From contig CAWKNZ010000009.1 in assembly GCA_963851265.1 (NCBI GenBank), positions 64,001 through 128,000 of the forward strand: a DNA stretch of 64,000 nucleotides, in the 5' to 3' direction. The position numbers were made by a program, and so were the translations under genes. This DNA comes from an uncultured Gemmatimonadales bacterium. GTDB taxonomy: Bacteria > Gemmatimonadota > Gemmatimonadetes > Gemmatimonadales > Gemmatimonadaceae. Positions 112 to 53,400 of the stretch are shown piece after piece (position 1 is the first letter of the stretch; every line of letters starts with the position of its first letter). Below the pieces are notes generated by a model. That model was not told the DNA's origin. It saw only the letters and a list, made by a program, of their open reading frames with translations, and did not search any database.

Positions 112-374
112 CGCCGGGCGGCGCGGGCGGCGCGGGCGGCGCTGGTCGAACGCGCGCCCGCCGTTAGGCCGGTTCGGCGCGTGCCCGCGAGCGCGGGCGC
201 GGGCGGGCGGGCGACGCCCGCCGGTGTGATGGTCGTCCCCCGACTCGGGCCGAGCTGCGTGCGTGCGCGCCCACCCTGGCGCTGTCGTGACGGCGGCGGT
301 ACTGTAGCGCGCCGGCGGCGTCTGCCGGCGGGTCCACCGCCCGGGCCCATTCCCATCCGAACACGGAGAGTCTC

Positions 375-2689
375 ATGGTCGGCGCCCAGCGGCCGACGGC
401 CGCAGGCTGCAGCTCGTGGCCTCGGTCGCGGGGTCCGCTCGCGACCCGGTGCCGGCTCGCCGCAATCGCCGCGTTCGCCGCCGTCCCGGCGGTCAGCTGC
501 ATGACAGGCGACGCGAGACCGGCCGCGCCCGAGGTGATCGACGTGGGGCGGGCGCGGTCGGTCGTGGTCACCGGCGCCGCCGCGTCGATGCCGGGCGGCG
601 CGGTCGTATTCGTCCGGAACCCCGGTCCGGGCCCGCGCCGCGTGCGCGCGGTACTCGCGGCGGTGAGCGGCGAGGGCAAGGGCCTAACGGATTCCGCAAG
701 AGCAGCCGCCGGGCCCGCCCGCGGGCGCGACAGCCGCACGCACAGCCGCACGCACAGCCGCACGCGCAGCCGCACGCGCAGCCGCACGCAGAGCAGGATG
801 TACCCGCCAGCGCGGGCTCGGCTGGGCCGGACGGCCCGCGCGTTCTCGGGATCGACACGGTCGTGAGTGTGGCCGAGCGCGACAGCGTCGCGCTTCGCGT
901 CAGGCTCGGCGGCGACCTTGCGCGGGGGAAGGTCGCGCGCGCCGCCCTCGTGCTCCGCGACACGGCGGACGCCCGGCCGCGCGCCGCAGCGGCCGCGCCC
1001 GCCGCCCGCGCGGACACGCACGCGGTGCTCGTCGTCGGAACCGGCCTGACCGCGGCCGCGAGGTGGTCGACGACCGCCGTGCGCCTGGCTCCGTTAGGCG
1101 ACGCGCCGCTCTGGGTCCTGCGCGACGTCGTCCCCCTGCCGTCCGGCGTCGCGCCCGCGGCGTACCTCCCCACCTGCGCGGCCGCGCGTTCTCCCCTCCA
1201 CCCCGGCGGCTCGACGCCAAAGGACGGGATCGCGTTCGCGTGCGTCGCGTCGGTCGACACCGCTGCGGGGCCCGGATTGCGGCTCGCGGTGGACGGCGTC
1301 TCGGGCGTGGGGGAGTACGAGGGCACCCTGCCGGTTTTCACCCCGACCGCGGCCGACACCCTGGCGCTCCGGGTGCGAGTCACGGACCTTCCTGTCTGGC
1401 CACTGCTGGTGCTGTCGGCGGGACTCCTGCTCGCGCTCGCGTCGCGGCGCTACACCGGTGTGCGACGCGCGCAGTGGCAGTTGCGGCGCCGCGCGCTCCT
1501 CCTGCGCCCGGCGTTCGCGTCGGCGCAGGGGGCGTTCATGGCCGGGTTGAATCGCGCGACGTCGGCCGCGGCGGGTGCGCCGGGTGCCCCCGCCCCGCAC
1601 GACGACTCGAAGCACACGCCATCGATCGCCGCGGATTTCTACGCGCAGGCCGACGCACTCGTCGACCGCGTGCAGACAGCCGCGCTTCCGGTGCTCGGGT
1701 CGTGGGACGTGAGCGACCCGACGTACAAGGCGCTCTCGGACGCGGCCGGCATGCTCGAGGCGACCCTGGTCGATTGGGGGGCGTTCGGACATCAGCTCCG
1801 CAGCCTCCGCGCGGCCGCGAAGGTCGCGTCCGCGGCGGCGACGCGGCTCCCGCCGCTCGTGACCGACCCCCCGCGTCAGGCACCGCAGGGCGTCATCGAC
1901 GCGCGTGCGATCGGCGCGCCCGGCAACCTCACGCTCGAGGCGTTCGCCGCGCGCAAGAAGGGCGTCGACGCCGCGACCGCGTTTCTCGCCACGCTCGCCG
2001 ACGAGATCACGCGTGCGGTGCGCACACGCGACTGGATCGACCAGCTGCGCCCGGCGCCGGGCGCGGCAGCCGGGGCCGCCCCGGCGCTCGCGGCGACGGT
2101 GGACGCGCAGCTCCGGCAGGTCATACTCGACGTCTGGGAGGCGCGTGACGCGGCCGACCTCGGTGTCCGCGCGACCGCGACCACGCTGCTGCAACTCGAG
2201 CACGCCCTCGCCGCGGCCACGGTGCCGCGCGGGGACCGGCTCGCCCTCGCGGCGCCTTCGCCCGCCGCGAAGCAACTGCGCTTCCGCACCGTGGCGGCGC
2301 TCGACGCCGCGCAGCACGTCGCCGCGCGCCGGGTGCTTCGCGCCGTCCCACCGTCGCCGGCCGAGGTCGCGGCACGGAACCGCCGGACCGCGCAGTCGCT
2401 GCTCGCCGCCCTGGGCCGGACCGACTGGCGGTACGCCGCGCTCGCCTGGGTCGTCGCGGTGCTCGGCTGGCTCTCTAAGTCGTACCTCGGCCAGTCGTTC
2501 GGAACGCTCGCCGACTATATCGGCGCGTTCACGTGGGGCTTCGGCGCGTCGGTCGGGCTCGACTTTCTGCAAACCACGCTCGGAAAGCTCGGCGCATCGA
2601 CGTGGGGCGCGACGGCCGCACCGCAAGCGTCGGCGTCCGCGGCGGTCGCGAATGCCGTGACCGCGGTGACGGCCGCGCGAACTCCGTAG
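375..2689 (+). CDS. Large membrane protein of unknown function, apparently split across two frames
   Basis: GGAGAG before ATG375; signal-like N-terminus in ORF 375-866; protein-like sequence continues in ORF 416-2689 from about 835, with one central and two C-terminal hydrophobic helices (FGTLADYIGAFTWGFG). Confidence 0.55.
731..790 (+). repeat. 5 x 12-bp tandem repeat CAGCCGCACGCR
   Basis: Units start at 731, 743, 755, 767, 779; encodes (QPHA)5 in the 416 frame. Confidence 0.95.
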
Positions 2690-2767
2690 CGCCGATCGCG
2701 CGGCACTTCCAGGCGCGTGGTCGACACGCGCGAGCCTCCACGTATCACCAACCGAGGAGCGTTGGGC

Positions 2768-3265: not shown

Positions 3266-4416
3266 GCGTCGCCCACAGCGCGGGCCGTCGCGCGCGGGTG
3301 GCGGCCGCGTGCGCCGCGCTCGCCGCCTGCGCGGGCTCGGCGCGCGCGCAGGCGAACGCGGCCGCACTCGCGACGCCTAACGACGCGACGCCTGGCACGG
3401 CGAAGCTGCTGCAGGCCGACTACGCCGTCCCGGAGGTCCCCGCGCTGAAGATGCTCGACCTGGACCAGAGCCGGCTCGTACGGCCGTACAGCGCGCGGGC
3501 GCTCGCGACGGGGTTCACCAGCGCCACGGGCGGCTCCGTGTACGTCCCCTCCGGGCTCGGCGTCGAGTTCTCGCCGCTGTTGCTCGTGTACGGCCGCCAG
3601 CTGTCCATCGCCGACTACGAGGCCGCCCCGTGGAAGTACCGGCTTCGCACGTCCTTCGCCGCCCGGCGCGACTCGACCACGTCGCGGCGCACGCTGCTCG
3701 CCGGGGCGCTCCGCATCAGCCTGCAGGACCAGTCGGACCTCCGCACCAACCGCGCGTTCCGCCGCGCGCTGACCTCGCTCACGCGGGCGCGGCGCGACAG
3801 CATACTGCTGGTGCGCGAGGCGTGGTCGCGCGCGGGGGTGCCGCTCGTCGGCGACCGAACGCCGGCGCAGGACAGCCTCGCGCGCGCGGTCGAGCGCGGG
3901 GTCGGCGCGCGGCTCGTCACCGGGTACGGCATCCAGCTCGACTCGCTCGACGAGCTGGTCAAGGCGGCCAAGGAGGAGGCGCTGTGGAACGCCGACGTGT
4001 TCGACGTCGCGCTCGGCGTGCGCAGCTCCGCACGCGACTCGCTGGCCGGCGGCATGCGCTTCGACGGGGTGGCGGGGTGGCTCACCAAGGGGTGGGCTCC
4101 GCGGTGGCTCCCGGGGCAGTTCCTGGTCGGCACGCGCGGGGCGTACGAGCGCGACTCGACCGGCCGGGATCTGCGCGGCACGGGCGACGCCATCGCACGC
4201 GTCTACGTCGGCCGGAACGCCTACCGGGTGCACGCCGACGTACAAGGGACGGGGCGGGGCTCGTCGCGTCCGAGTTGGCTCGTCGGTGGTGGCGGCGAGT
4301 TCCGGGCGGCTACCGGGTTCTGGGTGGATCTCGCGGCGAACTGGCGGGCGACGGGCGCGCTCGGGACCGGGCGCCTGCTGCACTCGGTGAAGCTGAAGTT
4401 CTCGCCGCCCGGCTGA
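3262..4416 (+). CDS. Secreted, possibly outer-membrane beta-barrel-like protein
   Basis: Signal peptide (ARA-QA); alternating amphipathic beta-strands in the C-terminal half ending VKLKF. Confidence 0.6.
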   Translation: MSVAHSAGRRARVAAACAALAACAGSARAQANAAALATPNDATPGTAKLLQADYAVPEVPALKMLDLDQSRLVRPYSARALATGFTSATGGSVYVPSGLGVEFSPLLLVYGRQLSIADYEAAPWKYRLRTSFAARRDSTTSRRTLLAGALRISLQDQSDLRTNRAFRRALTSLTRARRDSILLVREAWSRAGVPLVGDRTPAQDSLARAVERGVGARLVTGYGIQLDSLDELVKAAKEEALWNADVFDVALGVRSSARDSLAGGMRFDGVAGWLTKGWAPRWLPGQFLVGTRGAYERDSTGRDLRGTGDAIARVYVGRNAYRVHADVQGTGRGSSRPSWLVGGGGEFRAATGFWVDLAANWRATGALGTGRLLHSVKLKFSPPG

Positions 4417-4462
4417 CCGCGCAACGCGCGCGGCCGGCTGGCGAACGACTCCGTGCTCGTAC

Positions 4463-5713: not shown

Positions 5714-5808
5714 GGCTCGGGGGCTCGGAGGGAACGACGTGACGTTAGGCAGCACCGCCGCCCCGCGAATACCGCGCCGCAGGCGCGCGCTGCGGCCGTC
5801 CCGGTGCC

Positions 5809-8767: not shown

Positions 8768-9808
8768 ATGCGATGTCTGGTGTGGGGCGCGGGCGCGATC
8801 GGCGGCACCATGGGCGCGCACCTCGCGCGGGCCGGGCACGACGTCACGTTCGTCGACGCGGTCGGCGAGCACGTCGACGCGATCGGCCGAGACGGGATCC
8901 GGATCACCGGCCCGCTCGCGGCCTTCACCGTGCGGGCGCCCGCCTTCACCCCCGAGCGGGTGCGCGGCGCGTGGGACACGATCATCCTGGCGACCAAGGC
9001 ACAGCACACCGAATCCGCCACGCGCGCGCTGCGCCCCCACCTGAGCGCCGGCGGCTGCGTGATTTCGGCGCAGAATGGACTCAACGAGCTCGCCATCGCC
9101 GAGGTCGTCGGCCCGGACCGCACGGTCGGCGCCTTCGTCAACTTCGGCGCGGACTACCTCGAGCCCGGCGTGATTCATTACGGCGGCCGCGGCGCGGTGG
9201 TCGTGGGCGAGATCGACGGACGCCTCACGCCGCGGGCGGTCGCGGTGCGCGACGCGTGGCGCGACTTCGACGACCGCGCGGTCGCGACGCCCAACGTCTG
9301 GGGCTATCTCTGGGGCAAGGAGGCCTACGGCGCCATGCTCTTCGCCACCGCCCTGACCAACGAATCCATCGCCGACGCCCTCGCGCTGCCGGAGTACCGC
9401 GGCCTCTACATCGCGCTCGCGCGCGAGATGCTGGCCGTGGCCGCCGCGCGCGGGGTGACGCCCGAAGCGTTCGACGGGTTCGATCCGGCGGCCTATCTGC
9501 CGTCGGCCCCTCCCGGCGCCGCGGCGCGCTCGCTCGACGACCTCGTCGCCTTCAACCGCCGGTCGGCCAAGACGCACAGCGGGATCTGGCGCGACCTCGC
9601 CGTGCGTAGGCGTCCCACCGAGGTCGACGCGCAACTCGGGATCGTCGCCGCGCTCGGCCGGCAGGCGGGCGTGCCGACGCCGCTCACCGAGCGGCTCGTC
9701 GCGCTCGTCCACGACGTCGAGCGCGGCGCGCGCCCGCAGTCGCTCGACACGCTGGCGGCGCTCGCCGCCGCGCGCCCCGCGGCGCCTAACGATACGGCCG
9801 GCGGATGA
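8768..9808 (+). CDS. Ketopantoate reductase (PanE/ApbA)-family protein
   Basis: GAGAIGG, ATK, QNGL, WGK, TEVD motifs. Confidence 0.88.
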   Translation: MRCLVWGAGAIGGTMGAHLARAGHDVTFVDAVGEHVDAIGRDGIRITGPLAAFTVRAPAFTPERVRGAWDTIILATKAQHTESATRALRPHLSAGGCVISAQNGLNELAIAEVVGPDRTVGAFVNFGADYLEPGVIHYGGRGAVVVGEIDGRLTPRAVAVRDAWRDFDDRAVATPNVWGYLWGKEAYGAMLFATALTNESIADALALPEYRGLYIALAREMLAVAAARGVTPEAFDGFDPAAYLPSAPPGAAARSLDDLVAFNRRSAKTHSGIWRDLAVRRRPTEVDAQLGIVAALGRQAGVPTPLTERLVALVHDVERGARPQSLDTLAALAAARPAAPNDTAGG

Positions 9809-12089: not shown

Positions 12090-15000
12090 CTAGCGGGACT
12101 CGGCGCGCTCGCGCGGCCGCGGCTCCCGGTCGCGCGCCGGTGCCGACCCGCCAATCCGGAAGAGGTCGTCCAGCGCCGCCGCGATCTCCTCTTCGAGCGC
12201 GGCGCGGTCGACCAGCGCGGCCGCCCCGATCCGCCGCCCGATCCGCGCCAGCACCGCCTCCCGCGCCTCGTCGAGCAGCTCGTACACCGTCGGCACGACG
12301 AGCAGCGTGAGAAGCGTGCTCGTGAGCGTGCCGCCGATCACCGCGATGCCCAACGGCGCGCGGAACTGCGCCCCCTCGCCGGACCCCAGCGCGACCGGGA
12401 TCATCCCCGCGATGAGGGCGAAGGTGGTCATGAGGATCGGCCGCAGCCGCGTCGCGCCGGCGTCGACGAGCGCCGCGCGCAGCCCGAGCTGCCGCTCCTC
12501 GCGCGCCGACTTGGCGAAGTCGATGAGCAGGATCGCGTTCTTGGCCACGATGCCGCAGAGGAGCATCACGCCGATCAGGCTCATGATGTTGATCGTGTCG
12601 CCCGTGACCGCGAGCGCGAACATCACGCCGACCAGCGACAGCGGCAGCGAGAGCATGATCGCGATCGGGTCGAGGAAGGAGCCGAACTGCAGGACGAGGA
12701 TCAGGTACATCAGGAGCACCGCGGTGCCGAGCGCCGCGCCGATCTCGCCGAACACCTCGTCCTGGTCCTTCGACTCGCCGCCCATCGTGACGCGCACGCC
12801 CGGCGGGAGGGCGAGCGCGCGGACCTTGCCCTCGACCTCCGCCGAGACGTCGCCGCTCGGCCGGCCGGCGGTGTTGGCCTCGACCGTGACCACGAGGTCG
12901 CGGTCGAGGTGGTCGATCACGGCGGGGCCGACGCTGCGCGTGACGCGGGCGACCTGGCCCAACGGCACCGTGGCCGCGCCGTCCGGGCCCGCGACGGCGA
13001 GCGGCAGCTCGGCGACGTCGGCGGCGCGGGCGCGCGCGCCGGGGGTGAGGCGCACCTGGACGTCGCGCATCCGGCCGCCCGGGTCCTGCCAGTCGCCGGC
13101 CTTGATCCCCGCGAAGGCGGGGCGCAGCGCCTGCGCGACCTGCCCCGCCGTGACGCCGAGCACGCCGGCGACGCCGCGGTCGAGCACTACGTTCAGCTCG
13201 GGCTTCTGTCCCTTGGTCGAGAGGCCCACGTCGACCGCGCCGGGCACGCCGCGCACCGCGGCCGCGACCTGCTCGGCCGCCCGCGAGAGCGTGGCGAGGT
13301 CCGCGCCGCGCAGCTGGAGCTGCAACTGCTTCTGCCCGCCGTCGAGGTCGTTGGTGAACACGGAGAACGTCGCGCCCGCGAGCCGCGACGTCTCACGCCG
13401 CAGCTCGGCCGCGACCGCCTCGGCGTCCTTCGCGCGGCGCTCCTTCGGGACGAGGCGGACGTAGACGTTCCCCTCGTCGACGCTCCCGCCCGCGCCGCCG
13501 CCTAACGTGACGTACGTGTAGCGCACTTCGGGGTGCGCGCGCGCGATCCGGACGGCCTCCTCGGCCTTCTCGCGCGTGTAGGCGAGGTTGGAGCCCGGCG
13601 GCGTCTCGATGGCCATCGTGAACTCCGAGCGGTCGTCGGTCGGGAAGAAGCTGACGCCGACCGGACGCCAGGCGGGCACCAGCTGCGGCCCGACAGCGAA
13701 CACCGCGACGCCGAGCGCCCCGAGGCCGAGGCGGGCGGCGACCGGCGCGCGCGCGAGGGTGAGCGCGCCGACGACCAGGCCGATCCCGGCGAGCGCGACG
13801 CCGAGCCCGGTGAGTCCCGCGGAGGGGAGGACGAAGGAGGCGAGGAAGCTGCCCACCGCCACGGTGATCATGACCGCGCGGTGGTCGAGCGCCCACGCGA
13901 TCACGTCGCGGTAGCGTTCCGACTGCCGGTCGAACCACGCGTTGAAGCGGTCGAGCGCGCGCGTGAGGCGCGATTTCTCGTCCTCGCGCACGTGCGGGTC
14001 GGGCCAGTAGGCCGAGAGCATCGGGTCGAGCGAGAAGCTGACGAACAGCGAGACGAGCACCGCGCACGCGATCGTGAGCGCGAAGGGCTTGAACCACTGC
14101 CCGCCGACCCCCGGCATGAAGCCGATCGGCACGAAGACGGCGAGGATCGAGAACGTGGTCGCGGCCACGGCGAGCCCGATCTCGTCGGTGCCCTCGTGCG
14201 CGGCCGCCACGTGGTCCTTCCCCATCTCGACGTGACGCACGATGTTCTCGCGCACGACGATCGCGTCGTCGATCAGGATCCCGATGGCGAGCGAGAGCCC
14301 GAGCAGCGACATCGTTTCGAGCTTGAAGCCGAGCAGCCAGACGGCGATGAACGAGGCGAGCACGCTCACCGGCAGCGCGAGCCCGGTGATGATCGTCGAG
14401 CGCCACGAGTTGAGGAAGACGAACACGACGAGTACGGTGAGCACGGCGCCCTCGACGAGCGCCTCCTCGACGTTCCGCACGGCGGCATCGACGCGCGTGC
14501 CGGCGTCGCGCACGAGCTCGAGCCGGGTGCCCGGCGGCAGGCGGCGCTGGATCGCGGCGACGCGCTCGCGGACCCGCTCGCCCACGTCGGTCGTGCTGTA
14601 GCCCTGCCCCTTCTTGATGTCGATGCCGACGGCCTCGCGCCCGTCGTAGAGGGCGAGCGAGCGCGCCTCCTCGGTGCCGTCGCCGACGTCGGCCACGGCG
14701 CCGAGCCGGACGAGGGCGCCGTTGCGCTGCGCGACGACGAGGTCGGCGAACTCGCGCGGGTCGACGAAGCGGCCCTTGAGCCGGATGCTGCGCTCGTCGA
14801 GTGCGCCCTCGACGCGCCCCACGGGGGCGGCGAGGTTCTGCGCCTGCAGCGCCTGGACGACGTCGCTCACGCTCACCCCGTTCGCCCTGAGCGCGTCGGG
14901 CTTGAGCAGCACCGAGATCTCGCGCACGGCCTTCCCGAACACCTGCACCTCGGCCACGCCCGGGATCGCGCGCAGCTCGCGCGTGATGCCCGGGTCGACG

Positions 15001-15467: not shown

Positions 15468-15681
15468 GGCCGCGTCGTGAAGGCGGGGTCGAACGGGGGA
15501 GGGACGGACTGCTGTCCCTGGACGATCGTCCGCCGATCCGGTCCCACGGCGGGGAGCGACTGACACGAGAACGTGGTCGCAGGCGCGCGGGCGCGGCCTA
15601 ACAGCGCGCGCCCGCCGCGGCCCGCGCCGGGGGCGCGGGCCAGCCTTCCGGGCCGTCGCGCTGTCTCAATCCGTATCCCGT

Positions 15682-18435: not shown

Positions 18436-22640
<4,205 letters not shown>

Positions 22641-35683: not shown

Positions 35684-37638
35684 CGGCACCGCCCACGCCC
35701 CGCCGGTCCGTTCTCCCCGCGCACGTGACGCGCTGGTGCGTCGCGCTCGCCGCCGTCGCGGGGGGCGCGTGGAGTGGACGCGTGCCGGCACGCGCGCCGG
35801 CACGCGCTGCCGCGGGCATGGCGGATCGCGCGGCCTCCACGGGCGAGCTCGCGTACGTGAGCAACGAGGCCGGGCGGACGCTCTCCGTGATCGACGTCGC
35901 GACCGACCGCGTCGTCGCGACGATTCCGGTGGGCACGCGCCCGCGCGGCGTGCGCAGCGGGCCCGGCGGGGCGTTCGTGTACGTCGCGCTCTCGGGCTCG
36001 CCGCGCTGCCCGCCGACGATGGCGGACGCGGAGTGCGCGCGCATGCAGTCGGACCGCTCGCTCGACGGCATCGCCGAGGTGGACGCGGTGACGCGGCAGG
36101 TCACGCGCGTGCTGCCCGGCGGCACCGACCCGGAGCAGTTCGCGCTCAGCCCCGACGGCCGGCGGCTCTACGTGTCGAACGAGGACGCCGGAACCGCGTC
36201 CGTCGTGGACGTGCGGAGCGGACGCGTCACGACCACCGTCCCCGTCGGGCGCGAGCCCGAAGGCGTGCGCGTGACGCCGGACGGCCGCACCGCGTTGGTC
36301 ACCTCCGAGGCCGGCAACGCCGTCGTCGCGCTCGACGCGAGCAGCGGCCGCGTGCGCGCCCGGGCGACGGTCGACGCGCGCCCGCGCGACATCGTCGTTA
36401 CGCGCGACGGCGCGCGGTACTACGTGTCCGCGGAGGCCGGCGGGACGGTCAACATCGTCGACGCGCGGCGCGACACCGTGCTCGCGCGCATCGCGCTGCC
36501 CGCGGGTGCGAAGCCGATGGGGCTGGCACTCTCCCCCGATGCCACGACGCTCTACGTCGCGACCGGTCGGCACGGGACCGTCGAATTCGTCGACACGCGG
36601 ACGCGCGCGGTGACCGGTTCGGTTCGGGTGGGCGCACGCCCGTGGGGGATCGCGCTCGCCGCGGCGGGGCGCAAGCTCTACGTCGCCAACGGGTCGTCGA
36701 ACGACGTGTCCGTCATCGACGTGGCCGCGCGACGTGTGGTCGCGACGATTCCCGTCGGCGCGCTGCCGTGGGGCGTCGCGGTCGCGCCGGCTCCCTCTTC
36801 ACGATCGGCGCGGAACGGCGGAACGACCGGTGCGCGTACCGGCGTCCTGCGCGTCTGCGCCGACCCCAACAACCTGCCGTTCTCCGACGCGCGCGGCCGC
36901 GGGTTCGAGAACCGGATCGCCCGCGTGCTCGCCGCCGAGCTGCACGACACGGTGCAGTACACGTGGTGGGCGCAGCGGCGCGGCTTCGTGCGGAACACGC
37001 TCAAGGCGCGCCGCTGCGACGCCGTGATCGGCGCGCCCGTCGGCGACGAGCAGCTGCGCACGACGATGCCGTACTACCGGTCGACGTACGTGTTCGTCAC
37101 GCGACGCGGGACGCCGCCGGTGCGCTCGTTCGACGACCCGCGCCTGCGTCGCATGCGCGTCGGCGTCCACGTGATCGGCGCCGACAACAACAGTCTGCCG
37201 CCGGGCGTCGCGCTCACGCGCCGCGGGATCGTGCGCAACGTGCGCGGCTACAGCATCTACGGCGACTACCGGCAGGAGTCGCCACCCGCGCGGCTGGTCG
37301 AGGCGGTCGCGCGCGGCGACGTCGACGTTGCGGTCGTGTGGGGCCCGCTCGCCGGCTACTACGCGCGCCGCAGCCGCGTGCCGCTCGACGTCACGCCGGT
37401 GGCGCCGACGCCCGCCGACGGGCCGACCGCGCGCATGGACTTCGCCATCGCACTCGGCGTGCGCCGCGCCGACGATTCGCTCCACGTCGCGCTGGAACGG
37501 GCGCTGGTGCGACGGGCGGGCGCGGTGCGGCGCATCCTGCTCGAGTACCGCGTGCCGCTCGTCGGCGGCGACCTGGTCCAATCGGGCGAAGGGGCAGCCC
37601 GAGCCGCCGCGCCCGGTCCGCCGTCCCGGACCCGTTAG
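35680..37638 (+). CDS. Fusion of YVTN-type beta-propeller and MxaJ/XoxJ-like substrate-binding domain
   Basis: YVSNE and VATIPVG repeats, then LRVCADPNNLPFS, GFENRIA, PYYRSTYVF, DVAVVWGP in one ORF. Confidence 0.88.
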   Translation: MTAPPTPRRSVLPAHVTRWCVALAAVAGGAWSGRVPARAPARAAAGMADRAASTGELAYVSNEAGRTLSVIDVATDRVVATIPVGTRPRGVRSGPGGAFVYVALSGSPRCPPTMADAECARMQSDRSLDGIAEVDAVTRQVTRVLPGGTDPEQFALSPDGRRLYVSNEDAGTASVVDVRSGRVTTTVPVGREPEGVRVTPDGRTALVTSEAGNAVVALDASSGRVRARATVDARPRDIVVTRDGARYYVSAEAGGTVNIVDARRDTVLARIALPAGAKPMGLALSPDATTLYVATGRHGTVEFVDTRTRAVTGSVRVGARPWGIALAAAGRKLYVANGSSNDVSVIDVAARRVVATIPVGALPWGVAVAPAPSSRSARNGGTTGARTGVLRVCADPNNLPFSDARGRGFENRIARVLAAELHDTVQYTWWAQRRGFVRNTLKARRCDAVIGAPVGDEQLRTTMPYYRSTYVFVTRRGTPPVRSFDDPRLRRMRVGVHVIGADNNSLPPGVALTRRGIVRNVRGYSIYGDYRQESPPARLVEAVARGDVDVAVVWGPLAGYYARRSRVPLDVTPVAPTPADGPTARMDFAIALGVRRADDSLHVALERALVRRAGAVRRILLEYRVPLVGGDLVQSGEGAARAAAPGPPSRTR

Positions 37639-37692
37639 GCGCGCTGCCTGCGATCCGGCGCCGCGGGCGGGCGTACCCTGCCGTAGTGCAGC

Positions 37693-42296: not shown

Positions 42297-42705
42297 GCCC
42301 CCCGTCCTCGGTCACGGTCGTGTGCTCGACCCGGAATGTGGCACGGCGGTCACGGCTTCCATAGCCGGGGCGCGTGATCACCGGCGCCACGCGGGCCGAC
42401 ACCGCGCCGTTCCGGACGCCAGTCGGATCCGGTCGGCGCAGGCGCGAGTCGTTGGACGAGATCGGTTCGGAGCGCCGTGCGCGGCGTGTCGCATTGCCAC
42501 CCACGCCGCGGGGGCTTCGAGCGCCGAATCGACAGCAGACCGCAGTCGCTGGTTATCCGGCTTATCCGGCGCCGGCGGCGGCGTCCGTCGCGCGCCGCCT
42601 AACGTGGACGCCGAGCCGTACAGCAATCGCGGCGCACCGGACCTGCCACGGCGGGCCGGGCCGCTTTGGCAGCTTCCGCGCTGGGAGGGTGCGCGGGCGA
42701 GGGGC

Positions 42706-43736: not shown

Positions 43737-43907
43737 GCAGTGGGTGGGTGGGTGGGTGGAAGCGGGACCGATGGTGGCCCGCCTAACGCATCAGTGCGGC
43801 AGGAACGCGTCCGGCTCGACGCCGAGGTGCCGGCATCTCTGGCGCAGCCGCGGCGCCGCGAGGTCCCGACCCGCGTGGAGCTGCGAGTCGTCCGAGCGAG
43901 ACGGCGC

Positions 43908-44476: not shown

Positions 44477-44572
44477 GTCGAAGGCACCAGTTCAGCGGCG
44501 CGGCGGCCGCGAGGGGTCCCGCGCCGCCGAGGAGCACCGGGCCGCTGCGTCGGCTGATGCACAGCGTTAGGC
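44477..44572 (-). mobile_element. Degenerate integron attC-like site (96 bp)
   Basis: GCCTAAC-5nt-GCATCAGCCGACGC...GCGCCGCTGAAC-6nt-CTTCGAC; arms pair; right core has 2 mismatches to GTTRRRY. Confidence 0.6.
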
Positions 44573-44920: not shown

Positions 44921-44965
44921 GGCGCGTCGGGGTGTCGCCGCAGACTCGACGGCAGCAGCGCTGCG

Positions 44966-45103
44966 TTAGGCGGCCACGACTTCGCGCATTTCGCGCTCGA
45001 CCTCCTCCCGGGTACCGCGCGCGGCGACACACCCGGGCAGGTCCGGCGACTAGGCGGAGAACCCGGTCGCGGTCGGCTCGACGACGATGAGATCCCGAGT
45101 CAT
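44966..45103 (-). pseudogene. hicB: HicB antitoxin remnant 1 (internal TAG, shortened)
   Basis: MTRDLIVVEPTATGFSA*SPDLPGCVAARGTREEVEREMREVVAA*; stop at 45050-45052. Confidence 0.8.
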
Positions 45104-45309: not shown

Positions 45310-45625
45310 GGCGGATCGATACCGCCGTGCGGGGCCGCGCGCGACAGTTCCGCCCACAGGCTGTCCGCGTCGCCCCCGGGCGCGGCCACGCGGACCCGGA
45401 GCCACGACCACGCCTGAAAAGCCTAACGCCGACTCCACTGCGTGCTCACGCGCTCGGGACGCTGGCGCACACCGCACGTCGGTCCCGAAACGCCCGCCGC
45501 GGAGACGCCCTCGATGCGGCGGTGGCTGCGGCGTTGCGCGACGATCTCCGGCACACGGGATCACGAACAATCCCGCGCCGGAGTGTGGGCCCGTGACACG
45601 ACGGGCGGGTCCACCCTCACCCCCA

Positions 45626-46695: not shown

Positions 46696-46733
46696 CCGCC
46701 CGTCCCACCGTACACCCCTCACCCCAGGCTGCC

Positions 46734-47750
46734 ATGAGTGCGACCACGCACGACCTCTTCGGCGGAGCACCGGCCACCGCGCCGGCCACCCCGGGCAGCT
46801 ACGGCGACCCGCCGCACGGCGCGCACCGCCTTCCCGACGCGACGCGCCTCGGCGCCGTGCGGCTGCAGGTCGCCGACCTGGCCCGCTCGCTCGCGTTCTA
46901 CGAGGGTGTGCTCGGCCTGCACGTGCGCGCGCGCAGCGCCGGCCGGATCTCGTTAGGCACGCCGGCCGCACCGCCGGGCGGTGCGGCCGGCGACGGCCGC
47001 GAGCTGGTCGAACTCCGCGAGCGCCCGGGCGCGCGTCCCGTTCCGCGGCGCGGCCGGCTCGGGCTCTATCACTCCGCCGTCCTCCTTCCCGACCGCCCGA
47101 CGTTGGGGCGCTTCGCACGCCACCTCGCGACACTCGGCGTCCGCGCCGGCGCGGGCGACCACCTCGTGAGCGAGGCGCTGTACCTCACGGACCCCGACGG
47201 GCTCGGCGTCGAGGTCTACGCCGACCGCCCGCGGGAAGGCTGGCGGCGCGAGGGGCGCGAGCTGATGATGGCCACCGACCCGGTCGACATGACCGACCTC
47301 GTCGCCGCGGGGGGGGACGCGCCCTGGACCGGCGTGCCCGCGGGCACGACGATCGGGCACGTCCACCTGCACGTCGGGAGCACCGAGCAGGCTGCGGCGT
47401 TCTTCTCCGACGCGCTCGGCTTCGACCGCACGGTGTGGCGCTACCCCGGCGCGCTCTTCCTCGGCGCCGGCGGATACCACCACCACCTCGGCGCCAACAC
47501 GTGGGCCGGACCGGGCGCACGACCGCCGGCCGCGGACGACGCGCAGCTCCTCGAGTGGACGATCGAACTCCCCACGCCGGCCGACGTGGCGAACGCGGCA
47601 CGCAGTCTCGTCGCCGCGGGGCACGCCGTCGAAGGCGGGCGCGGCGCAGAGCCCGGACACGAGATCCTGACGCGTGATCCGTGGGGCACGGCGGTTCGGC
47701 TCCGCATCGCGGCGTCGCCCGGCGCGGACCGCGTTCCCGACGGTCCGTAG
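46734..47750 (+). CDS. VOC-family catechol 2,3-dioxygenase (CatE-like)
   Basis: GLYH, DHLVSEALY, DPDG, GHVHL, GGYHHH. Confidence 0.88.
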   Translation: MSATTHDLFGGAPATAPATPGSYGDPPHGAHRLPDATRLGAVRLQVADLARSLAFYEGVLGLHVRARSAGRISLGTPAAPPGGAAGDGRELVELRERPGARPVPRRGRLGLYHSAVLLPDRPTLGRFARHLATLGVRAGAGDHLVSEALYLTDPDGLGVEVYADRPREGWRREGRELMMATDPVDMTDLVAAGGDAPWTGVPAGTTIGHVHLHVGSTEQAAAFFSDALGFDRTVWRYPGALFLGAGGYHHHLGANTWAGPGARPPAADDAQLLEWTIELPTPADVANAARSLVAAGHAVEGGRGAEPGHEILTRDPWGTAVRLRIAASPGADRVPDGP

Positions 47751-47799
47751 CGGGTCTCATTGAGCGCGACGACGCGCGGGCAGCGCGACCGCGCCCAGG

Positions 47800-49197
47800 T
47801 CACGCGCGCCCGCCGAGCGCCGCGGCGAGCAGCACGGTGAAGGCGAGGGCGGCGACCGAGATCAGCGTCTCGCACACCGTCCACGTGCGGAGCGTCTCGG
47901 AGACCGACAGCCCGAAGTACTCCTTCACGAGCCAGAAGCCCCCGTCGTTCACGTGCGAGAGGACGAGCGACCCGGCGCCGGTCGCGAGCACCATCAACTC
48001 GGGCGAGACGCCGGCCGCGCGCGCCGCGACCGGGGCCGCGATCCCGCAGGCCGTGGTCATGGCCACCGTGGCCGAGCCGGTCGCGACGCGGATGAGCGCG
48101 GCGACGAGCCAGCCGAAGAGCAGCGGTGGCACGCGGGCGCGCGTCGCGAGCGCGACCACCGCGCCCGACACGCCGCCCTCCGTCAACACCCGCCCGAACC
48201 CCGCGCCCGCACCGACCACGAGGATCACCGCGGCCACCGGGCCGAGGCACTCGTTGGTGTAGCGGAGAATCGTGTCGCGGTCGAACCGGCGCCCGAGGGT
48301 CGCGAAGCTGGCGAGCAGCGCGACGAGGAGCGCGACGACGGGCGTGCCGGCGAGGCGCAGCATGCCGTTAGGCACGCCCCCCGCCGGCGCGACCGCGTCG
48401 GCCGCGTTGCCCAGGAGCATGAGCGCGACCGGCAGGAGCACCGTCCCCACGGTCACGCCGAACCCCGGCCGGCCACCGCGCCGCGCCGCGGGCTCCTGCT
48501 CGGTCAACTCGGCGCCGAGCGCGGTCGCGCCGCGCGGGACTGCATCCCGCGGCGTCCTACCCACGGCGCGCCGCGCCGCGACGCGCGGCGCGACGACGCG
48601 CGCGAACACCGGACCGGCGAGCGCTGCGGTGGGCAGCCCGACGGCGAGCGCGTAGAGCATGGTGCGGCCGATGTCGGCGTGGTACGCGGTCACCGCGATC
48701 AGCGCGGCCGGGTGCGGCGGGACGAGGCCGTGCACCACGCTCAGCGCCGCCACCATCGGGATGCCGACGAGCACCAGCGACGCGCCGGTGCGCCGCGCGA
48801 GGTCGAACGCGATGGGCGCGAGCAGCACGAGCCCGACGTCGAAGAACACCGGGAGGCCGACGAGCAGCGCGATGCAGGCCATCGCCCAGTGGACGTTCCG
48901 CGCGCCGAAGGCGGCGATCACGCGGCCCGCGATCTGCTCCGCCCCGCCCGACTCCGCCAGCATCTTGCCCAACATCGTGCCGAGCGCGATCACCACGGCG
49001 ATGTGCCCGAGCGCGGACCCCGCCCCGGCCTCGAACGACGCGACGACCTTGCCGAGGGGCATTCCCGTCGCCACGCCGAGGGCGAGCGAGACGAGAACGA
49101 GCGCGACGAACGGGTGCAGCTTCAGCCGCGCGATGAGCAGCACGAGGCACACGACCGCGGCCGCCGCGGCGAGCAGCAGCTGATTACCCTGAAGCAC
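47800..49197 (-). CDS. GntP/DsdX-family permease
   Basis: KLHPF, LGKMLAESGGA, HGLVPPHP, SHVNDGGFW. Confidence 0.92.
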   Translation of the reverse strand: MLQGNQLLLAAAAAVVCLVLLIARLKLHPFVALVLVSLALGVATGMPLGKVVASFEAGAGSALGHIAVVIALGTMLGKMLAESGGAEQIAGRVIAAFGARNVHWAMACIALLVGLPVFFDVGLVLLAPIAFDLARRTGASLVLVGIPMVAALSVVHGLVPPHPAALIAVTAYHADIGRTMLYALAVGLPTAALAGPVFARVVAPRVAARRAVGRTPRDAVPRGATALGAELTEQEPAARRGGRPGFGVTVGTVLLPVALMLLGNAADAVAPAGGVPNGMLRLAGTPVVALLVALLASFATLGRRFDRDTILRYTNECLGPVAAVILVVGAGAGFGRVLTEGGVSGAVVALATRARVPPLLFGWLVAALIRVATGSATVAMTTACGIAAPVAARAAGVSPELMVLATGAGSLVLSHVNDGGFWLVKEYFGLSVSETLRTWTVCETLISVAALAFTVLLAAALGGRA

Positions 49198-49230
49198 GCG
49201 CGGGATCCGATGTGTGAGGGGGAGGACGGC

Positions 49231-50691
49231 ATGCAACGCTGCGACACTCTCATCCGCAACGCCACGGTGGTCGACGGGACGGGCGCGCCCGCCGTGCGCG
49301 CCGACGTGGCGCTCGCGGCCGGGCGGGTCGCGGCCATCGGTGCACTCGACCCGCGGGCGTGGCGGGCCGACGACGAGCGAGATGCCGCGGGACTGGTGCT
49401 CTGCCCCGGGTTCGTCGACGTGCACACGCACGACGACACGAGCGTGGTCCGCGCGCCGGGCATGTGGCCCAAGCTGTCGCAGGGTGTGACGACGGTGGTG
49501 GTCGGCAACTGCGGCGTGAGCGCCGCGCCCGTGCGCCTGCGCGGCGAGCCGCCCGACCCGATGAACCTGCTCGGGCGGGCGGAGGACTTCCGCTACCCCA
49601 CATTCGCGTCGTACCGCGAGGCCGTCGAGCGCGCGCACCCCGCGGTCAACGTGGCCGCGCTCGTGGGCCACACGGCGCTGCGCGCCAACCACATGGACCG
49701 CCTCGACCGTCCTGCCGCGCCCCGCGAGGTCGCCGCCATGCGCGCCGAGCTGCGCGACGCGCTCGCCGGCGGCGCGTTAGGCCTCAGCACGGGGCTCGCC
49801 TACGCGAACGCGCGCCACGCCCCGGCGGCGGAGGTGCTCGCGCTGGCCGAGCCGCTCGCGGAGGCGGGCGCGCTGTACGCGACGCACGTCCGGAGCGAGT
49901 TCGCCGGGATCCTCGATGCGCTCGACGAGGCGGTGCGCGTCGGGCGGCACGCGCGCGTGCCGGTGGTGGTCTCCCACCTGAAGTGCGCAGGCCCCGAGAA
50001 CTGGGGGCGGAGCGACGAGGTGCTCGCCACGCTCGACGCCGCGCGACGCACGAGCCCATCAGGCGACGACGTGGTCGGGTGGGACTGCTACCCGTACGCC
50101 GCCGGCTCCTCGACGCTCGACCTCGATCAGGTCGACGACCGCGTCGAGATCACGATCACCTGGTCGGACCCGCACCCCGAGGCGGGCGGACGGTCGCTCG
50201 CAGAGGTCGCGGCCGCGTGGGGCATGCCGCCCATCGAGGCGGCTCGGCGGCTGCAGCCGGCGGGCGCGATTTATCACTCGATGTCGGAGGCCGATGTCCG
50301 GCGCATCCTGTCACACCCGGCCACCATCATCGGCTCGGACGGGCTGCCCAACGACCCCCGCCCGCACCCGCGCCTCTGGGGGGCGTTCCCGCGCGTGCTG
50401 GGCCACTACTGCCGCGACGTGGGCCTGTTCCCGCTCGCCGACGCCGTGCACAGGATGACCGGGCTCTCGGCCCGGCGCTTCGGGCTCGCCCGACGCGGCG
50501 AGGTGCGCGAGGGGCACTGGGCGGACCTCGTGCTGTTCGATCCCGCGACGGTGCGCGACGTGGCGACGTACGCGGACCCGCAGCGGCCGGCCGCGGGCAT
50601 CGCGGCCGTGTGGGTCAACGGCGTGCTGAGCAGCGAGGGGCAGGTCCCGACCGGCGCGCGCGGCGGGCGGTTCCTCCCCCGCGGCGCCTAA
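49231..50691 (+). CDS. N-acyl-D-amino acid deacylase
   Basis: PGFVDVHTHDD, GNCG, HVR, SHLK, GSDG, HPRLWGAF; GGAGG RBS. Confidence 0.93.
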   Translation: MQRCDTLIRNATVVDGTGAPAVRADVALAAGRVAAIGALDPRAWRADDERDAAGLVLCPGFVDVHTHDDTSVVRAPGMWPKLSQGVTTVVVGNCGVSAAPVRLRGEPPDPMNLLGRAEDFRYPTFASYREAVERAHPAVNVAALVGHTALRANHMDRLDRPAAPREVAAMRAELRDALAGGALGLSTGLAYANARHAPAAEVLALAEPLAEAGALYATHVRSEFAGILDALDEAVRVGRHARVPVVVSHLKCAGPENWGRSDEVLATLDAARRTSPSGDDVVGWDCYPYAAGSSTLDLDQVDDRVEITITWSDPHPEAGGRSLAEVAAAWGMPPIEAARRLQPAGAIYHSMSEADVRRILSHPATIIGSDGLPNDPRPHPRLWGAFPRVLGHYCRDVGLFPLADAVHRMTGLSARRFGLARRGEVREGHWADLVLFDPATVRDVATYADPQRPAAGIAAVWVNGVLSSEGQVPTGARGGRFLPRGA

Positions 50692-50699
50692 CACCCCGG

Positions 50700-52447
50700 C
50701 TACGGCCGCAGCGGCCGGTAGTTCACGTCGAGCGCGTCCAACCGCCGCAGGTGCGCGCGCAGTCGCGCCGTGAAGTTCGCGAAGTCCCGCGACGCGCGAG
50801 GCGACCACGTCACCTCGGCCAGCGCCGACAGGCGCGGGTACGCCATGTACTCGGCCTGCTTGGGCGTCGGCACGTACTCCGTCCACAGGTTGCCCTGCGC
50901 GCCGAGCACGTGGCGCGCCTCCGAGGCGGAGAGTTCGGTCGGCACGGGCTCGAAGGCGTACACCGTGTCGAGCGGCAGATATCCGCCGCCGGCGAGCGGC
51001 TCCGACGCGTGGTCGCGCGACTGGTAGTAATCGAGGTACACGCGGCTCGTCGGCGTCATCACCACGTCGTGGCCGGCGCGCGCGGCCGCGATGCCACCCG
51101 CGGTGCCGCGCCACGACATCACCGCAGCGCCGGGCGCGAGCCCGCCTTCGAGGATCTCGTCCCACCCGATGAGGCGGCGTCCGCGCGCCGTGAGGAACGC
51201 GTCCATCTGCCGGATGAACCAGCTCTGCAATTCGTGCTCGTCCTTGAGCCCGAGCGCGCGGATGCGCGCCTGCACCTGCGGGTCGGCGCGCCATCGCGCC
51301 TTGTCGGCCTCGTCGCCCCCGACGTGCACGAACGGACCCGGGAAGATGGCGAGCACCTCGGTCAGCACGTCCTGCATGAACCGGACGGTGCCCGGCTCCG
51401 CGTTCAGGATGTTGTCGAACACGCCCCAGCGCGTGGCGACCGCCGAAGGCTGGGGGGCGACGCCGAGCTCGGGGTAGGCGGCGATGGCCGCGACGGCGTG
51501 CCCGGGCATCTCGATCTCGGGCACGACCGTGACGTGGCGCGCGGCGGCGTAGGCGACCACCTCGCGCGCATCGTCCTGCGTGTAGAAGCCGCCGTGGGGC
51601 ACCGAGTCGTACACCCACGCCGCGGAATCACCGCGCGCCTGCCGGCCCGCGACCGTCATCGCGCGCCGCGAGCCCACGGCCGTGAGGCGCGGGTACTTCT
51701 TGATCTCGAGCCGCCACCCCTGGTCCTCGGTGAGGTGCCAGTGAAAGGTGTTCATCTTGTGGAGCGCGAGCAGGTCGATGTACTTCTCGACGAACTCCTT
51801 GGGCATGAAGTGGCGGCCCACGTCGAGCATCCCGCCGCGCCACACGAAGCGCGGCGCGTCCTCGATGCGCGCGGCGGGCATCGTCCACGCGACCCCGCGC
51901 ACCGGCGCCGCGCGAAAGACGTCGGGCGGCAGCAGCTGACGGATCGTCTGCACGGCGTAGAACAGCCCGGCCTGCCCGGCCGCGCGCGCCGTCACCCGGT
52001 CCGGACGTACCTCGAGCGCGTAGCCCTCGTCACCGAGCCGCGCGAGCGACGCGTCGAGCCGGAGCACGATCGCCCCCGCCCTGGCGGACGCGGCGCCCGG
52101 CGGCAGCATCCCCTCGCGCACCGCGAGCGCGTAGCCGGTGGCCGGCTCGAGGTAGCCGGCGAGTTGACGCCCGACCGTGGCCGCCGCGGGCTGGCCGGGC
52201 GCCGTCCAGATCACCGTGCCCGCCGTGAGCGCGAACCGCCCCGGCTTGGCGTCAGCTGTACCGGCCGGGGGACGACCGAGATCGCGGGCGCTGAGTCCCT
52301 CACAGGCGAACCCCCCGCGGGCGAAGTCCCCGCGCGGGGCTCGGTGGCGGCCTGCGCGCCCGCGGGCCGGCTCGCGAGCGCCGCCAGACACGCCCCGAAC
52401 GCGGCGGCCGACCGCGTTGCGCGCGTTGCGCGCGTCGCGCCTGTCAT
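50700..52447 (-). pseudogene. GH20 beta-N-acetylhexosaminidase with a frameshift near 52249
   Basis: RGGMLDVGRHF, HWHLTEDQGWR, EIEMPGH, HVGGDEA; signal peptide and ISVVPRPVQL lie in another frame from ATG52447. Confidence 0.85.
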
Positions 52448-53400
52448 GCGCCGAACCGCACGCGACGCGTCTCCAGCTCCTGCCCCGTGGAGTGCGTGAG
52501 CGACCCGTAGAGGTCGGGCCGGCGCGCGCGGAGCCACCGCCGCCCCGACGACGTGGGCAGCAGCGACGCGTCGAGGTCCGCGACGACCATCGCGTCGCCT
52601 AACGCGCGCGTCTCGGCGACGATCTCGCCGTAGGGGTCGAGCACCATCGCGTTGCCCGTCCGGATCTCGTCGTCGTCGGGGCCGATGCCGTTACTGAACA
52701 GCAGGAACATGCCGTTGTCGTGCGCCCGGCTCGGGAGCCAGCGCATCAGCCACCCGCGCCCCTTGGGCCCGCACAGCTCGGCCTCGCACGCCGCCGGGTC
52801 CTCCCCACGGCGCGCCCACACGGCGGGGTCCACCGGCTTCATCCCGCGCGGGCTCACCGAATCGCACCCGCCGGTCTGGTGCGGCGCGAGCAACACCTCG
52901 GCGCCGAGCAGCGCGGTGGCGCGCACGTTCTCGACGATGTTGTTGTCGTAGCAGATCAGGACGCCCACGCGGCAGCCGTGCGGGGTGTCGAACACCGTAT
53001 ACCGGTCACCCGCGGCGATGTCGGGGTGCTCGAACACGTGCAGCTTGCGGTGGACGGCCCACGCGCCGTCGGGCATCGCGACGACGTACGCGTTGTAGAC
53101 GCGCCCGTCCTCGCCCAGCTCCAGGAGCCCCGCGCCGACCGTCATCCCGTGCTCCCGCGCGAGCCGCAGGAGCTCCGCGGTCGACGGCCCGTCGGGCACC
53201 GGCTCGGCCAGCGCCTCGAAGGCCTCGCGCGAGAGCTTGCGCACGTGCCAGTATCCCGTCAGGCACATCTCCGGAAAGACGATCAACTCCACGCCCGCGC
53301 GGGCCGCGTCGGCCGCGAAGTGTCGGACCCGCCCGACGTTGTACGCCTTGTCGCCCGGCGCGTGCTGGAACTGGACCGTCGCCACCCGGATATCGCGCAT
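52444..53400 (-). CDS. Nitrilase/carbon-nitrogen hydrolase family protein
   Basis: E-K-C triad: FPEM, HRKLH, ICYD. Confidence 0.92.
   Translation of the reverse strand: MRDIRVATVQFQHAPGDKAYNVGRVRHFAADAARAGVELIVFPEMCLTGYWHVRKLSREAFEALAEPVPDGPSTAELLRLAREHGMTVGAGLLELGEDGRVYNAYVVAMPDGAWAVHRKLHVFEHPDIAAGDRYTVFDTPHGCRVGVLICYDNNIVENVRATALLGAEVLLAPHQTGGCDSVSPRGMKPVDPAVWARRGEDPAACEAELCGPKGRGWLMRWLPSRAHDNGMFLLFSNGIGPDDDEIRTGNAMVLDPYGEIVAETRALGDAMVVADLDASLLPTSSGRRWLRARRPDLYGSLTHSTGQELETRRVRFGA

Follow-up and report, generated by a model that had tools for sequence, protein, structure and literature searches.

An octameric DNA word, GCCTAACG (on the other strand CGTTAGGC), is strongly over-represented in the genome of an uncultured soil bacterium of the Gemmatimonadales and appears to be best explained as a transfer tag resembling the uptake sequences of other bacteria. 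The word is described here from a window of 64,000 nucleotides (positions 64,001–128,000 of contig CAWKNZ010000009.1, assembly GCA_963851265.1), which corresponds to C9:64001-128000 of the source genome (G000; 4.60 Mb in 12 contigs). The tag reading is given a probability of about 45% and is made by analogy; membership of the word in the known family of uptake sequences, the bias in transfer and the protein that would read the word are all putative.

The window displays 27 exact copies, 11 that read GCCTAACG on the forward strand and 16 on the reverse strand. Dinucleotide-preserving shuffles of the window (n = 100) have a mean of 1.02 copies (standard deviation 1.08, maximum 5) and none of the 100 reaches 27; the G+C content is 0.71–0.77 along the window length. 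These are the same 27 copies, with none extra, that had been picked out by eye from the letters of the window (here termed the sequence-only reading), and the variant GCCTAACA that was listed with them is present at 15596 and 50686. The source genome has 1,396 copies, 688 forward and 708 reverse, at a density of 0.27–0.41 per kb on each contig. An order-3 Markov model predicts 58.3, thus the enrichment is 24-fold. Single-letter variants of the word are found at 0.4- to 3.7-fold of expectation, with the exception of GCCTAACA (equivalent to TGTTAGGC), which has 243 copies and is 11-fold enriched. In the 216 copies that are wholly in spacers, GCCTAAC is preceded by C or T in 77% and followed by G or A in 90%. 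Extra information is confined to one letter on each side of these copies, and thus the word is Y-GTTAGGC-R with no longer flank. A search of open-access papers and preprints showed no paper describing the word; the matches listed for the octamer strings had titles on subjects other than genome-wide motifs.

The enrichment is not a product of codon usage. Genes were called with our own crude caller, which is based on codon log-likelihood and gives 3,780 open reading frames covering about 90% of the source genome; all statements on reading frame depend on these calls. When synonymous codons are shuffled inside each gene (15 replicates), the called genes are expected to have a mean of 45.8 copies (standard deviation 8.0, maximum 64). 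They have 1,049, a 23-fold excess, and in the called genes of the window there are 15 copies where the mean is 1.13 (maximum 3). The over-representation that had been noted in the window thus extends to the whole genome in both the Markov and the codon-aware counts. In addition, TTA codons are scarce and are tied to the word, as had also been proposed. There are 1,337 in-frame TTA codons in the source genome; 783 are in the context CG-TTA-GGC and 168 in the context TG-TTA-GGC, and GGC directly follows TTA in 1,008. All ten TTA codons in the called genes of the window are CG-TTA-GGC. For every other rare codon, the commonest context accounts for no more than 6%. The sequence-only reading had named two outcomes that would speak against it, an absence of enrichment under a codon-aware null and TTA codons equally common in other contexts; the codon-aware excess and the TTA context show that neither is the case.

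Reading frames are occupied to different extents. Occupancy is taken as the number of words divided by the number of sites in the source genome whose amino acids permit the word. The frame xCG-TTA-GGC, which encodes [SPTA]-L-G, is occupied at 782 of 4,781 sites (16%), and xxG-CCT-AAC-G, the frame on the opposite strand that encodes x-P-N-[VADEG], at 176 of 821 (21%). Occupancy is 3.4% in the frame xGC-CTA-ACG ([SRCG]-L-T; 66 of 1,935 sites) and 0.75% in the frame xxC-GTT-AGG-C (x-V-R-x; 24 of 3,192). The word also provides stop codons: of the 868 genes whose last residue is Ala, 95 terminate with GCC-TAA-CG, and of the 737 with a final Arg, 74 terminate with CGT-TAG-GC. From the lowest to the highest codon-adaptation quintile, occupancy rises from 7.5% to 23%, although the lowest quintile may include false open reading frames. 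The rise is the opposite of that expected from a dominant translational cost. At [SPTA]-L-G sites outside the word, Leu before Gly is encoded by CTC 3,233 times and by CTG 371 times, a ratio of about nine; the genome-wide CTC/CTG ratio is below two, which displays a strong codon-pair effect before Gly.

The word shows no preference for strand. In spacers between tandem genes of the source genome, the two orientations are present 66 and 65 times. Convergent spacers have the highest density, with 1.17 words per kb; the value is 0.52 for spacers of the tandem type, 0.30 for divergent ones and 0.255 for coding sequence. Density peaks where constraint is least. Both strands, spacers, four reading frames and stops are all enriched, in agreement with the proposal of a signal at the DNA level that overrides codon choice. 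Orientation tracks the local gene strand and not the position on the contig, and occupancy is alike in genes on the majority and minority strands. Polarity with respect to replication was assessed at gene-strand switches on contig C2, as the genome is a draft with origin and terminus unmapped. Since majority- and minority-strand genes have similar occupancy, no polarity of the Chi or KOPS type is seen, and a polar recombination signal, one of the options offered by the sequence-only reading, is unsupported by either gene strand or spacer orientation. The distribution of words over genes is close to Poisson (2,762 genes with none, 821 with one, 173 with two, 22 with three and two with four), and the gaps between words have a coefficient of variation of 1.07.

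The presence of the word varies sharply among relatives. Word counts were compared with those of a reversed-word control in the source genome and 30 relatives. Ten of these 31 genomes are word-rich: G000–G004, which form one genus (g1), together with G008, G012, G017, G018 and G030, the last from another family. G012 has 6,360 copies in 5.1 Mb. The other 21 genomes are word-poor, with 3 to 194 copies each, below the control. In a second sample of 201 genomes across the phylum, seven genomes have more than twice the control count. All are from the same order, five from the family of the source genome (f1, the source genome included) and two from genus g67 of family f2, and none of the 63 genomes from outside the order exceeds twice the control. 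Unpublished genomes are included in both tallies (G011 in the first; G011, G078, G117 and G198 in the second); all are poor and the conclusions are the same without them. The rich lineages are g1, g5, g9, g14, g15, g22, g32, g35, g39, g41 and part of g67; their poor sisters include G009, G013 and the remainder of family f3.

Orthologous genes show how the word is written. In uvrA, the eight rich orthologues have 2–4 words each and the 20 poor orthologues have none; G006 and G017 are not in this set, as the loci fetched are a paralogue with 50% identity, nor is G018, for which no locus was fetched. In acnA, all nine rich orthologues have 1–6 words and the 20 poor ones have none (G002 and G023 gave no match, and five family f3 sequences are represented by the C-terminal half alone). 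Combined, the word is found in 17/17 rich and 0/40 poor orthologues. Gains of the word are parallel in different lineages. At column 539 of uvrA the word is present in G001, G002, G003, G008, G012 and G030, and its TTG form in G000 and G004; column 668 of uvrA and columns 109, 335 and 619 of acnA also display the word across genera or families. Poor genomes have CTC or CTG at the shared columns. Some words arose through a change of the protein; for example, genus g1 has Leu for Val and Gly for Gln/Glu, G012 has Leu for Tyr, and at acnA column 266 Ala, Pro or Glu is replaced by Leu (TTA) in both genus g1 and G012. In G030, one word consists of two rare codons in a row, GTT-AGG. A quick tree of uvrA requires four changes of the rich state, at least three of which are forced by well-supported branches. 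The orthologue pattern and the tree thus point to a word-writing process that is strong, lineage-specific and repeatedly gained or lost. G+C content was rejected as the determinant, as third-position G+C of uvrA reaches 0.95–0.98 in poor genomes and is 0.75 in the rich G012. In a syntenic comparison, the cox region of the window has many paralogues at 65–83% identity, which makes orthology unsafe there.

The word is identical to an integron core. Contig C95 of G021, a word-poor genome of the same order, carries an integron array with about 29 cassettes in 24 kb, and the cassette ends consist of GCCTAAC(A), an imperfect palindrome and C-GTTAGGC, the full architecture of attC sites. The array (G021:C95:1-24000) shows two recurring attC types with common R boxes. 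In the source genome, enrichment is seen for precisely these two attC 8-mers, CGTTAGGC and TGTTAGGC. The match to the integron core consensus that was noted earlier therefore extends letter for letter to the R′/R″ core of true attC sites from the same order. Integrons have been recorded in Gemmatimonadota (available text of PMC8618304).

However, the integron integrase does not track richness. IntI (TIGR02249) is above the cut-off in five of the 10 rich genomes and in 13 of the 21 poor ones, and is fragmentary or not found in the rich genomes G001, G002, G008, G012 and G018. The only integrase gene of the source genome that passes the cut-off (C6:3005-6044) is split, with an insert of about 2 kb immediately behind the conserved CHTFR motif. 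The integrase was rejected as reader of the word on these grounds. Among the approximately 1,800 cores of the source genome, attC-like pairing was found in only nine convergent pairs at 30–150 bp. A few attC-like sites are present, at C6:1592 and C10:188936-203674. In plasmid 1 of Gemmatirosa kalamazoonensis there is a tandem repeat of seven cores in about 95 bp, six of them at an exact 12-bp spacing (NZ_CP007129.1:1005343-1005437).

Genes for DNA uptake are present in the source genome, i.e. ComEC, DprA, ComEA-like helix-hairpin-helix proteins, PilA, PilMNOPQ, PilB and PilT. At C7:759936-763025 a gene for a ComEA-like helix-hairpin-helix protein is directly followed by ATPase genes of the pilB and pilT type, in a small competence-style cluster that is separate from the pilA-pilMNOPQ cluster at C5:26–35 kb. 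There are ten N-methyl hits among pilin-like genes, and two of the pilins were profiled across the relatives. Conjugative type IV secretion was rejected as a route, as VirB4 is found in two of 31 genomes, one rich and one poor.

Of the options named in the sequence-only reading, uptake, or a different transfer bias, fits best. In the proposed mechanism, a sequence-specific protein would recognize Y-GTTAGGC-R in double-stranded form as part of a pathway of DNA exchange, most likely natural transformation by way of a type IV pilus and ComEC. DNA carrying the word would be transferred and recombined into recipients more often than DNA without it. Such a bias would act as a molecular drive and convert tolerable sites to the word through synonymous codons, conservative amino acid changes, stops and spacers. 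The drive would be strongest in DNA of long residence in the core genome and weakest in DNA that is young or rarely exchanged.

Several observations weigh against the transfer-tag reading. The drop in enrichment at one mismatch is steeper than would be expected of a graded bias in uptake. Inverted pairs capable of forming terminators are rare, with nine convergent pairs in the source genome. The CTA frame is occupied five-fold less than the TTA frame; tRNA supply was rejected as a cause, because tRNA-Leu(UAA) and tRNA-Leu(UAG) are both present. ComEC is found in 31/31 genomes, rich and poor alike. The ComP_DUS family (PF16732) has no match in G000, G012 or G008, and its weak pilin hits in 13 of 31 genomes are from both classes, which led to rejection of a ComP-type pilin as reader, although a receptor from a different family is conceivable. 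The PilW-like pilin of C9 and the PilA-like pilin beside polA were likewise rejected, with homologues in rich and poor genomes. None of the genes tested (ComEC, the two pilins, ComP_DUS, VirB4, IntI) separates rich from poor, and the literature search showed no paper on competence or uptake sequences in the phylum. Finally, identity with the integron core would not follow from uptake alone, nor would the word-free zones at replicon maintenance modules and at some housekeeping operons.

The window includes one of these zones. No copy had been seen after 52.6 kb, and this is correct: the sequence is word-free from window position 52,604 to 3.2 kb past the window end, a stretch of 14.6 kb (C9:116597-131159). 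Within it there is a plasmid-type module of parA (59106-60014), parB (60011-61267) and a RepA-like initiator (61306-63210). The two megaplasmids of G. kalamazoonensis are the only matches to the initiator among 72,556 plasmid records, with 31–32% identity, and give indirect support to the family name Gemmatimonadaceae for the source genome. Further modules with ParA, ParB and an initiator (RepA-like or DnaA_N-bearing) are at C6:80667-85053 and C8:256200-260526. With three plasmid-type modules, the source genome probably has three secondary replicons besides the chromosome, similar to the megaplasmids of G. kalamazoonensis. All five of its replication or partition loci (5/5) are in word-free gaps of 14.6–45.1 kb. 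Besides the gap in the window, these are the C6 repA-parAB gap (C6:76506-91677, 15.2 kb), the C8 repA-parAB gap (C8:248138-269545, 21.4 kb), the dnaA-dnaN gap (C1:2108-17074, 15.0 kb) and the chromosomal parAB gap (C1:182877-227963), which at 45.1 kb is the longest in the genome. Gaps of at least 14.6 kb make up 6% of the genome in total. Other long gaps contain ordinary operons, e.g. nusA-infB, infC-rplT-pheST, a type VI secretion cluster and histidine synthesis.

The 45.1-kb zone has native G+C content and codon use and encodes gidA, parA, parB and mnmE. It has 66 eligible [SPTA]-L-G sites, none of which displays TTA or TTG. The only two perfect parS-like palindromes of the source genome are in the zone together with a third that has two mismatches (C1:186276, 192709 and 195715). 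In genus g1 the parS spelling is TGTGGCACGTGCCACA, which is richer in G+C, with two perfect copies per genome beside parAB; the sites in other members of the genus are at G004:C1:1524698 and 1527620 and at G001:C5:732446 and 735453. A recent import of the zone was considered and rejected. Identity to two congeners is 78.2% and 76.7% inside the zone versus 81.4% and 81.6% outside, a difference too small for this, and the ParB of the zone groups with its genus. Word-free parts are slightly more diverged from congeners (78% versus 81% identity), with Spearman coefficients of 0.41 and 0.49 over 33 and 34 segments.

Comparable gaps are found around ParB in the megaplasmids of G. kalamazoonensis KBS708, where they are 10.9 and 9.2 kb long and control stretches of the same plasmids have gaps of at most 4.1 kb. 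On other chromosomes the pattern is different. Perfect copies of what we take to be the parS consensus adjoin parB in G012, G159 and G114, and near-consensus copies are seen in G206 and G124. Words are found inside parB or at most about 1.6 kb from parS in G012, G159, G114, G206 and G188; G124 and G008 were uninformative in this comparison. In G004 and G001 the gap at parAB measures only 7.8 and 8.7 kb, respectively. Exclusion of the word from ParB spreading zones therefore failed as a general chromosome rule, with words by parS in five other rich genera. The large chromosomal word-free zone is peculiar to genus g1. The plasmid-type maintenance modules are word-poor (5/5), perhaps as young or rarely exchanged DNA.

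The word-free zones bear most directly on an alternative in which an abundant intracellular protein binds the word, e.g. one that is nucleoid-associated (an option also named in the sequence-only reading), acts in repair or marks the DNA as self, and in which the copies are kept by selection at each site or by a repair bias. Location of the five replication and partition loci in gaps that cover at most 6% of the genome, the 66 eligible sites without TTA or TTG, and the ParB gaps of the KBS708 megaplasmids are what would be expected if a bound protein were a roadblock near the centromere. However, the exclusion is not general, since words lie by parS in the five genera given above and the gaps of G004 and G001 are short; the other long gaps hold ordinary operons and placement is otherwise random. 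Selection at each of 1,400–6,400 sites would also be very weak, yet it must override codons and even amino acids, and no candidate protein is known. This alternative appears unlikely, but it is to be taken seriously. A different route of biased transfer, by a particle similar to gene transfer agents or by phage packaging, would follow the same drive logic and fits every signature of drive equally well. The patchy spread of the word, which changed state at least three times on the uvrA tree, would be in keeping with a mobile determinant. Known packaging signals are longer, though, with few per genome, and VirB4 is in one rich and one poor genome only. Such a route is considered rather improbable.

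Methylation, the integron integrase, Chi-like polarity and regulation by TTA are each disfavoured by direct test. Use of the dispersed cores as secondary recombination sites by an IntI-type integrase, or by one related to it, would explain the identity of the word with the attC boundaries of G021:C95 and the fact that both attC 8-mers are the enriched forms; by our arithmetic, GTTRRRY is matched on one strand or the other by about 0.2% of 7-mers. The distribution of IntI, the split gene in the source genome and the nine cores in approximately 1,800 that pair like attC do not agree with this, and copies arise by point changes within conserved genes and not by insertion. Dependence on the integrase is nearly refuted already, because words persist where intI is broken, and a role for the integron machinery is held to be quite improbable. 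A methyltransferase target multiplied by a repair bias of the very-short-patch type has a precedent in proposals for HIP1, a comparably hyper-abundant 8-mer that is tied to two methylases (available text of PMC4390886 and PMC5861425). However, the single-molecule real-time (SMRT) methylome of KBS708, whose megaplasmids have 36 and 33 word copies per 50 kb, lists three m6A motifs, RGATCY, ATGCAC and CCAGN7TCA (PMC3974934), and none overlaps the word. C5 methylases (PF00145) have a match in three of 31 genomes; of the ten rich genomes only G018 has one, a fragment, and no match was found in G000–G004, G008, G012, G017 or G030. In addition, the word is not palindromic and its C-to-T variants are not depleted. 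Methylation, which the sequence-only reading had listed as an option, is thus unlikely, although 5mC from an unrecognized enzyme is conceivable, and this explanation as a whole is very improbable. The last alternative, a translational signal with TTA as a regulatory rare codon (similar to bldA in Streptomyces) or a polar signal of the Chi or KOPS type, could draw on TTA being the rarest Leu codon except CTA and occurring in 1,018 of 3,780 genes through the word, and on an AddA-like helicase-nuclease in the source genome. The antisense CCT-AAC frame (21% occupancy), spacers and stops are equally enriched, however, and there is no orientation bias with respect to transcription in spacers or to the majority gene strand. 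Strand symmetry, together with the enrichment of spacers and stops, led to rejection of TTA as a translational signal; the symmetry refutes this last alternative in practice, and it is hardly credible.

The transfer-tag reading rests in part on likeness to the DNA uptake sequences (DUS) of Neisseriaceae, which are read by the minor pilin ComP, and the uptake signal sequences (USS) of Pasteurellaceae, as described in the available text of PMC3630211 and PMC3868556. Common properties are a short, exact and non-palindromic word at 0.1 to 1.25 per kb, equal presence on both strands, enrichment in spacers downstream of genes, lineage specificity, and writing in the least costly frames and by conservative amino acid changes. 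Pilus, ComEA-like, ComEC and DprA genes are present in the source genome as well. Unlike these systems, the word belongs to a different phylum, for which the literature search showed no reported competence, and no ComP-family match is seen in the three genomes named above. Richness is also patchy inside one family (Gemmatimonadaceae) and not universal, inverted terminator pairs are almost absent, and the spelling is that of an integron core. HIP1 (GCGATCGC) is likewise a hyper-abundant 8-mer written into genes, 15- to 300-fold over-represented according to the available text of PMC5861425, and has been linked to transformation (available text of PMC13756078 and of bioRxiv 10.1101/2024.09.10.611283). 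It differs in being palindromic and methylated by DmtA/DmtC; the Gemmatimonadaceae word is asymmetric and no methylation of it is reported in the word-rich KBS708. The attC sites of the order have R′ (GTTRRRY) and R″ (RYYYAAC) boxes identical to the word of the source genome, including the flanking C/T. The dispersed copies, however, have no partner box and no L boxes and thus no attC fold, are in frame in housekeeping genes, and persist where intI is broken or not found. Chi and the KOPS/SRS sequences, which act with RecBCD/AddAB or FtsK, are similar in that an asymmetric 8-letter word is over-represented in core DNA and may mark it as self; the Gemmatimonadaceae word differs in having no strand polarity. 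The enrichment and codon cost of Chi are far below those of the word.

The specificity of the word may have been taken over from the cassette pool or may have co-evolved with it. In a broader proposal, which is doubtful, an integron core would have turned into a genome-wide tag in some Gemmatimonadales. Its reader would be an uptake receptor or an intracellular protein, and the word would mark cassettes and would have been painted over chromosomes and megaplasmids by drive, sparing the plasmid-type replication and partition modules. If this were true, DNA exchange would be coupled directly to cassette capture. Identity with the integron core also makes it possible that cassette traffic and genome-wide tagging share one recognition step. 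It would also be the first uptake-type word outside Proteobacteria, with the exception of HIP1, whose role is debated. Sequence-specific self-tags for DNA exchange are established in two proteobacterial families only, again with cyanobacterial HIP1 a matter of debate. The Gemmatimonadales word, if it is a tag, would be a third case, independent of both, in an abundant and little-studied soil phylum. New here are the unlikelihood of methylation, the failure of IntI, of a ComP-type pilin and of type IV secretion to track richness, the identity of the word with the local attC core, and the word-free state of plasmid-type modules. The sharp on/off states among close relatives (10 of 31 genomes, at least three changes) suit a search for the reader by phylogenetic profiling. 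As KBS708 is a cultured and fully sequenced carrier, what reads the words and how fast they are written are testable questions. For annotation of rich genomes, it is relevant that the word accounts for almost every TTA codon, for many of the TAA and TAG stops and for certain amino acid replacements.

The 27 copies of the window comprise ten of the type NCG-TTA-GGC, five of the type CCT-AAC, three TAG stops and nine in spacers. Eleven copies had been described as NCG-TTA-GGC; ten of these are confirmed in called genes and the eleventh cannot be placed in any. CCG-TTA-GGC is found at 1092..1099 (−), where it encodes P-L-G in a gene without a Pfam family (863-2689, +), at 18805..18812 (+) in an aldo/keto reductase gene (18436-19443, −) and at 34190..34197 (−) in the gene at 33718-34731 (+). 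The last gene has a second word, ACG-TTA-GGC, at 34676..34683 (−). ACG-TTA-GGC (T-L-G) is also present at 13500..13507 (+) in the gene of an AcrB-type RND pump (12090-15467, −). TCG-TTA-GGC occurs at 23597..23604 (−) in the gene at 22747-23790 (+) and at 46951..46958 (−) in a glyoxalase family gene (46734-47750, +). GCG-TTA-GGC is at 28557..28564 (−) in a pyrroloquinoline quinone (PQQ) dehydrogenase gene (26756-28639, +), at 35472..35479 (−) in the CtaG gene (34742-35683, +), and at 52597..52604 (+), the last copy of the window, in a CN hydrolase gene (52444-53400, −).

The CCT-AAC reading that had been given for other copies applies to five. These are ACG-CCT-AAC-GAC (T-P-N-D) at 3375..3382 (+) in the gene at 3262-4416 (+), CTG-CCT-AAC-GTC at 5743..5750 (−) in a metallophosphoesterase gene (4463-5755, −), GCG-CCT-AAC-GAT at 9784..9791 (+) in a gene of the ketopantoate reductase family (8780-9808, +), CCG-CCT-AAC-GCG at 32197..32204 (+) in the gene of cytochrome oxidase subunit I (30203-32260, +) and GTG-CCT-AAC-GGC at 48366..48373 (−) in a GntP permease gene (47800-49431, −). 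Four copies were earlier said to supply stop codons. Three of them do provide TAG: the copy at 19558..19565 (+) ends a Ser/Thr kinase gene (19560-22640, −; CGT-TAG), that at 26358..26365 (−) ends the gene at 25653-26363 (+), and that at 37633..37640 (−) ends the gene at 35680-37638 (+). The fourth stop, placed at 44966, is where no gene was called.

Outside the called genes, words are at 162..169 (−) and 682..689 (+), both spacer with no gene called, and in spacers at 26419..26426 (−), 42597..42604 (+), 43781..43788 (+) and 45421..45428 (+). No gene was called at 44565..44572 (−), 44964..44971 (−) or 49775..49782 (−). Both copies of the GCCTAACA variant, 15596..15603 (+) and 50686..50693 (+), are in spacers. 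The region at 43.7–45.6 kb has five word copies and few called genes, and surrounds a gene for a HicA-type toxin of 69 amino acids at window positions 45100-45309.

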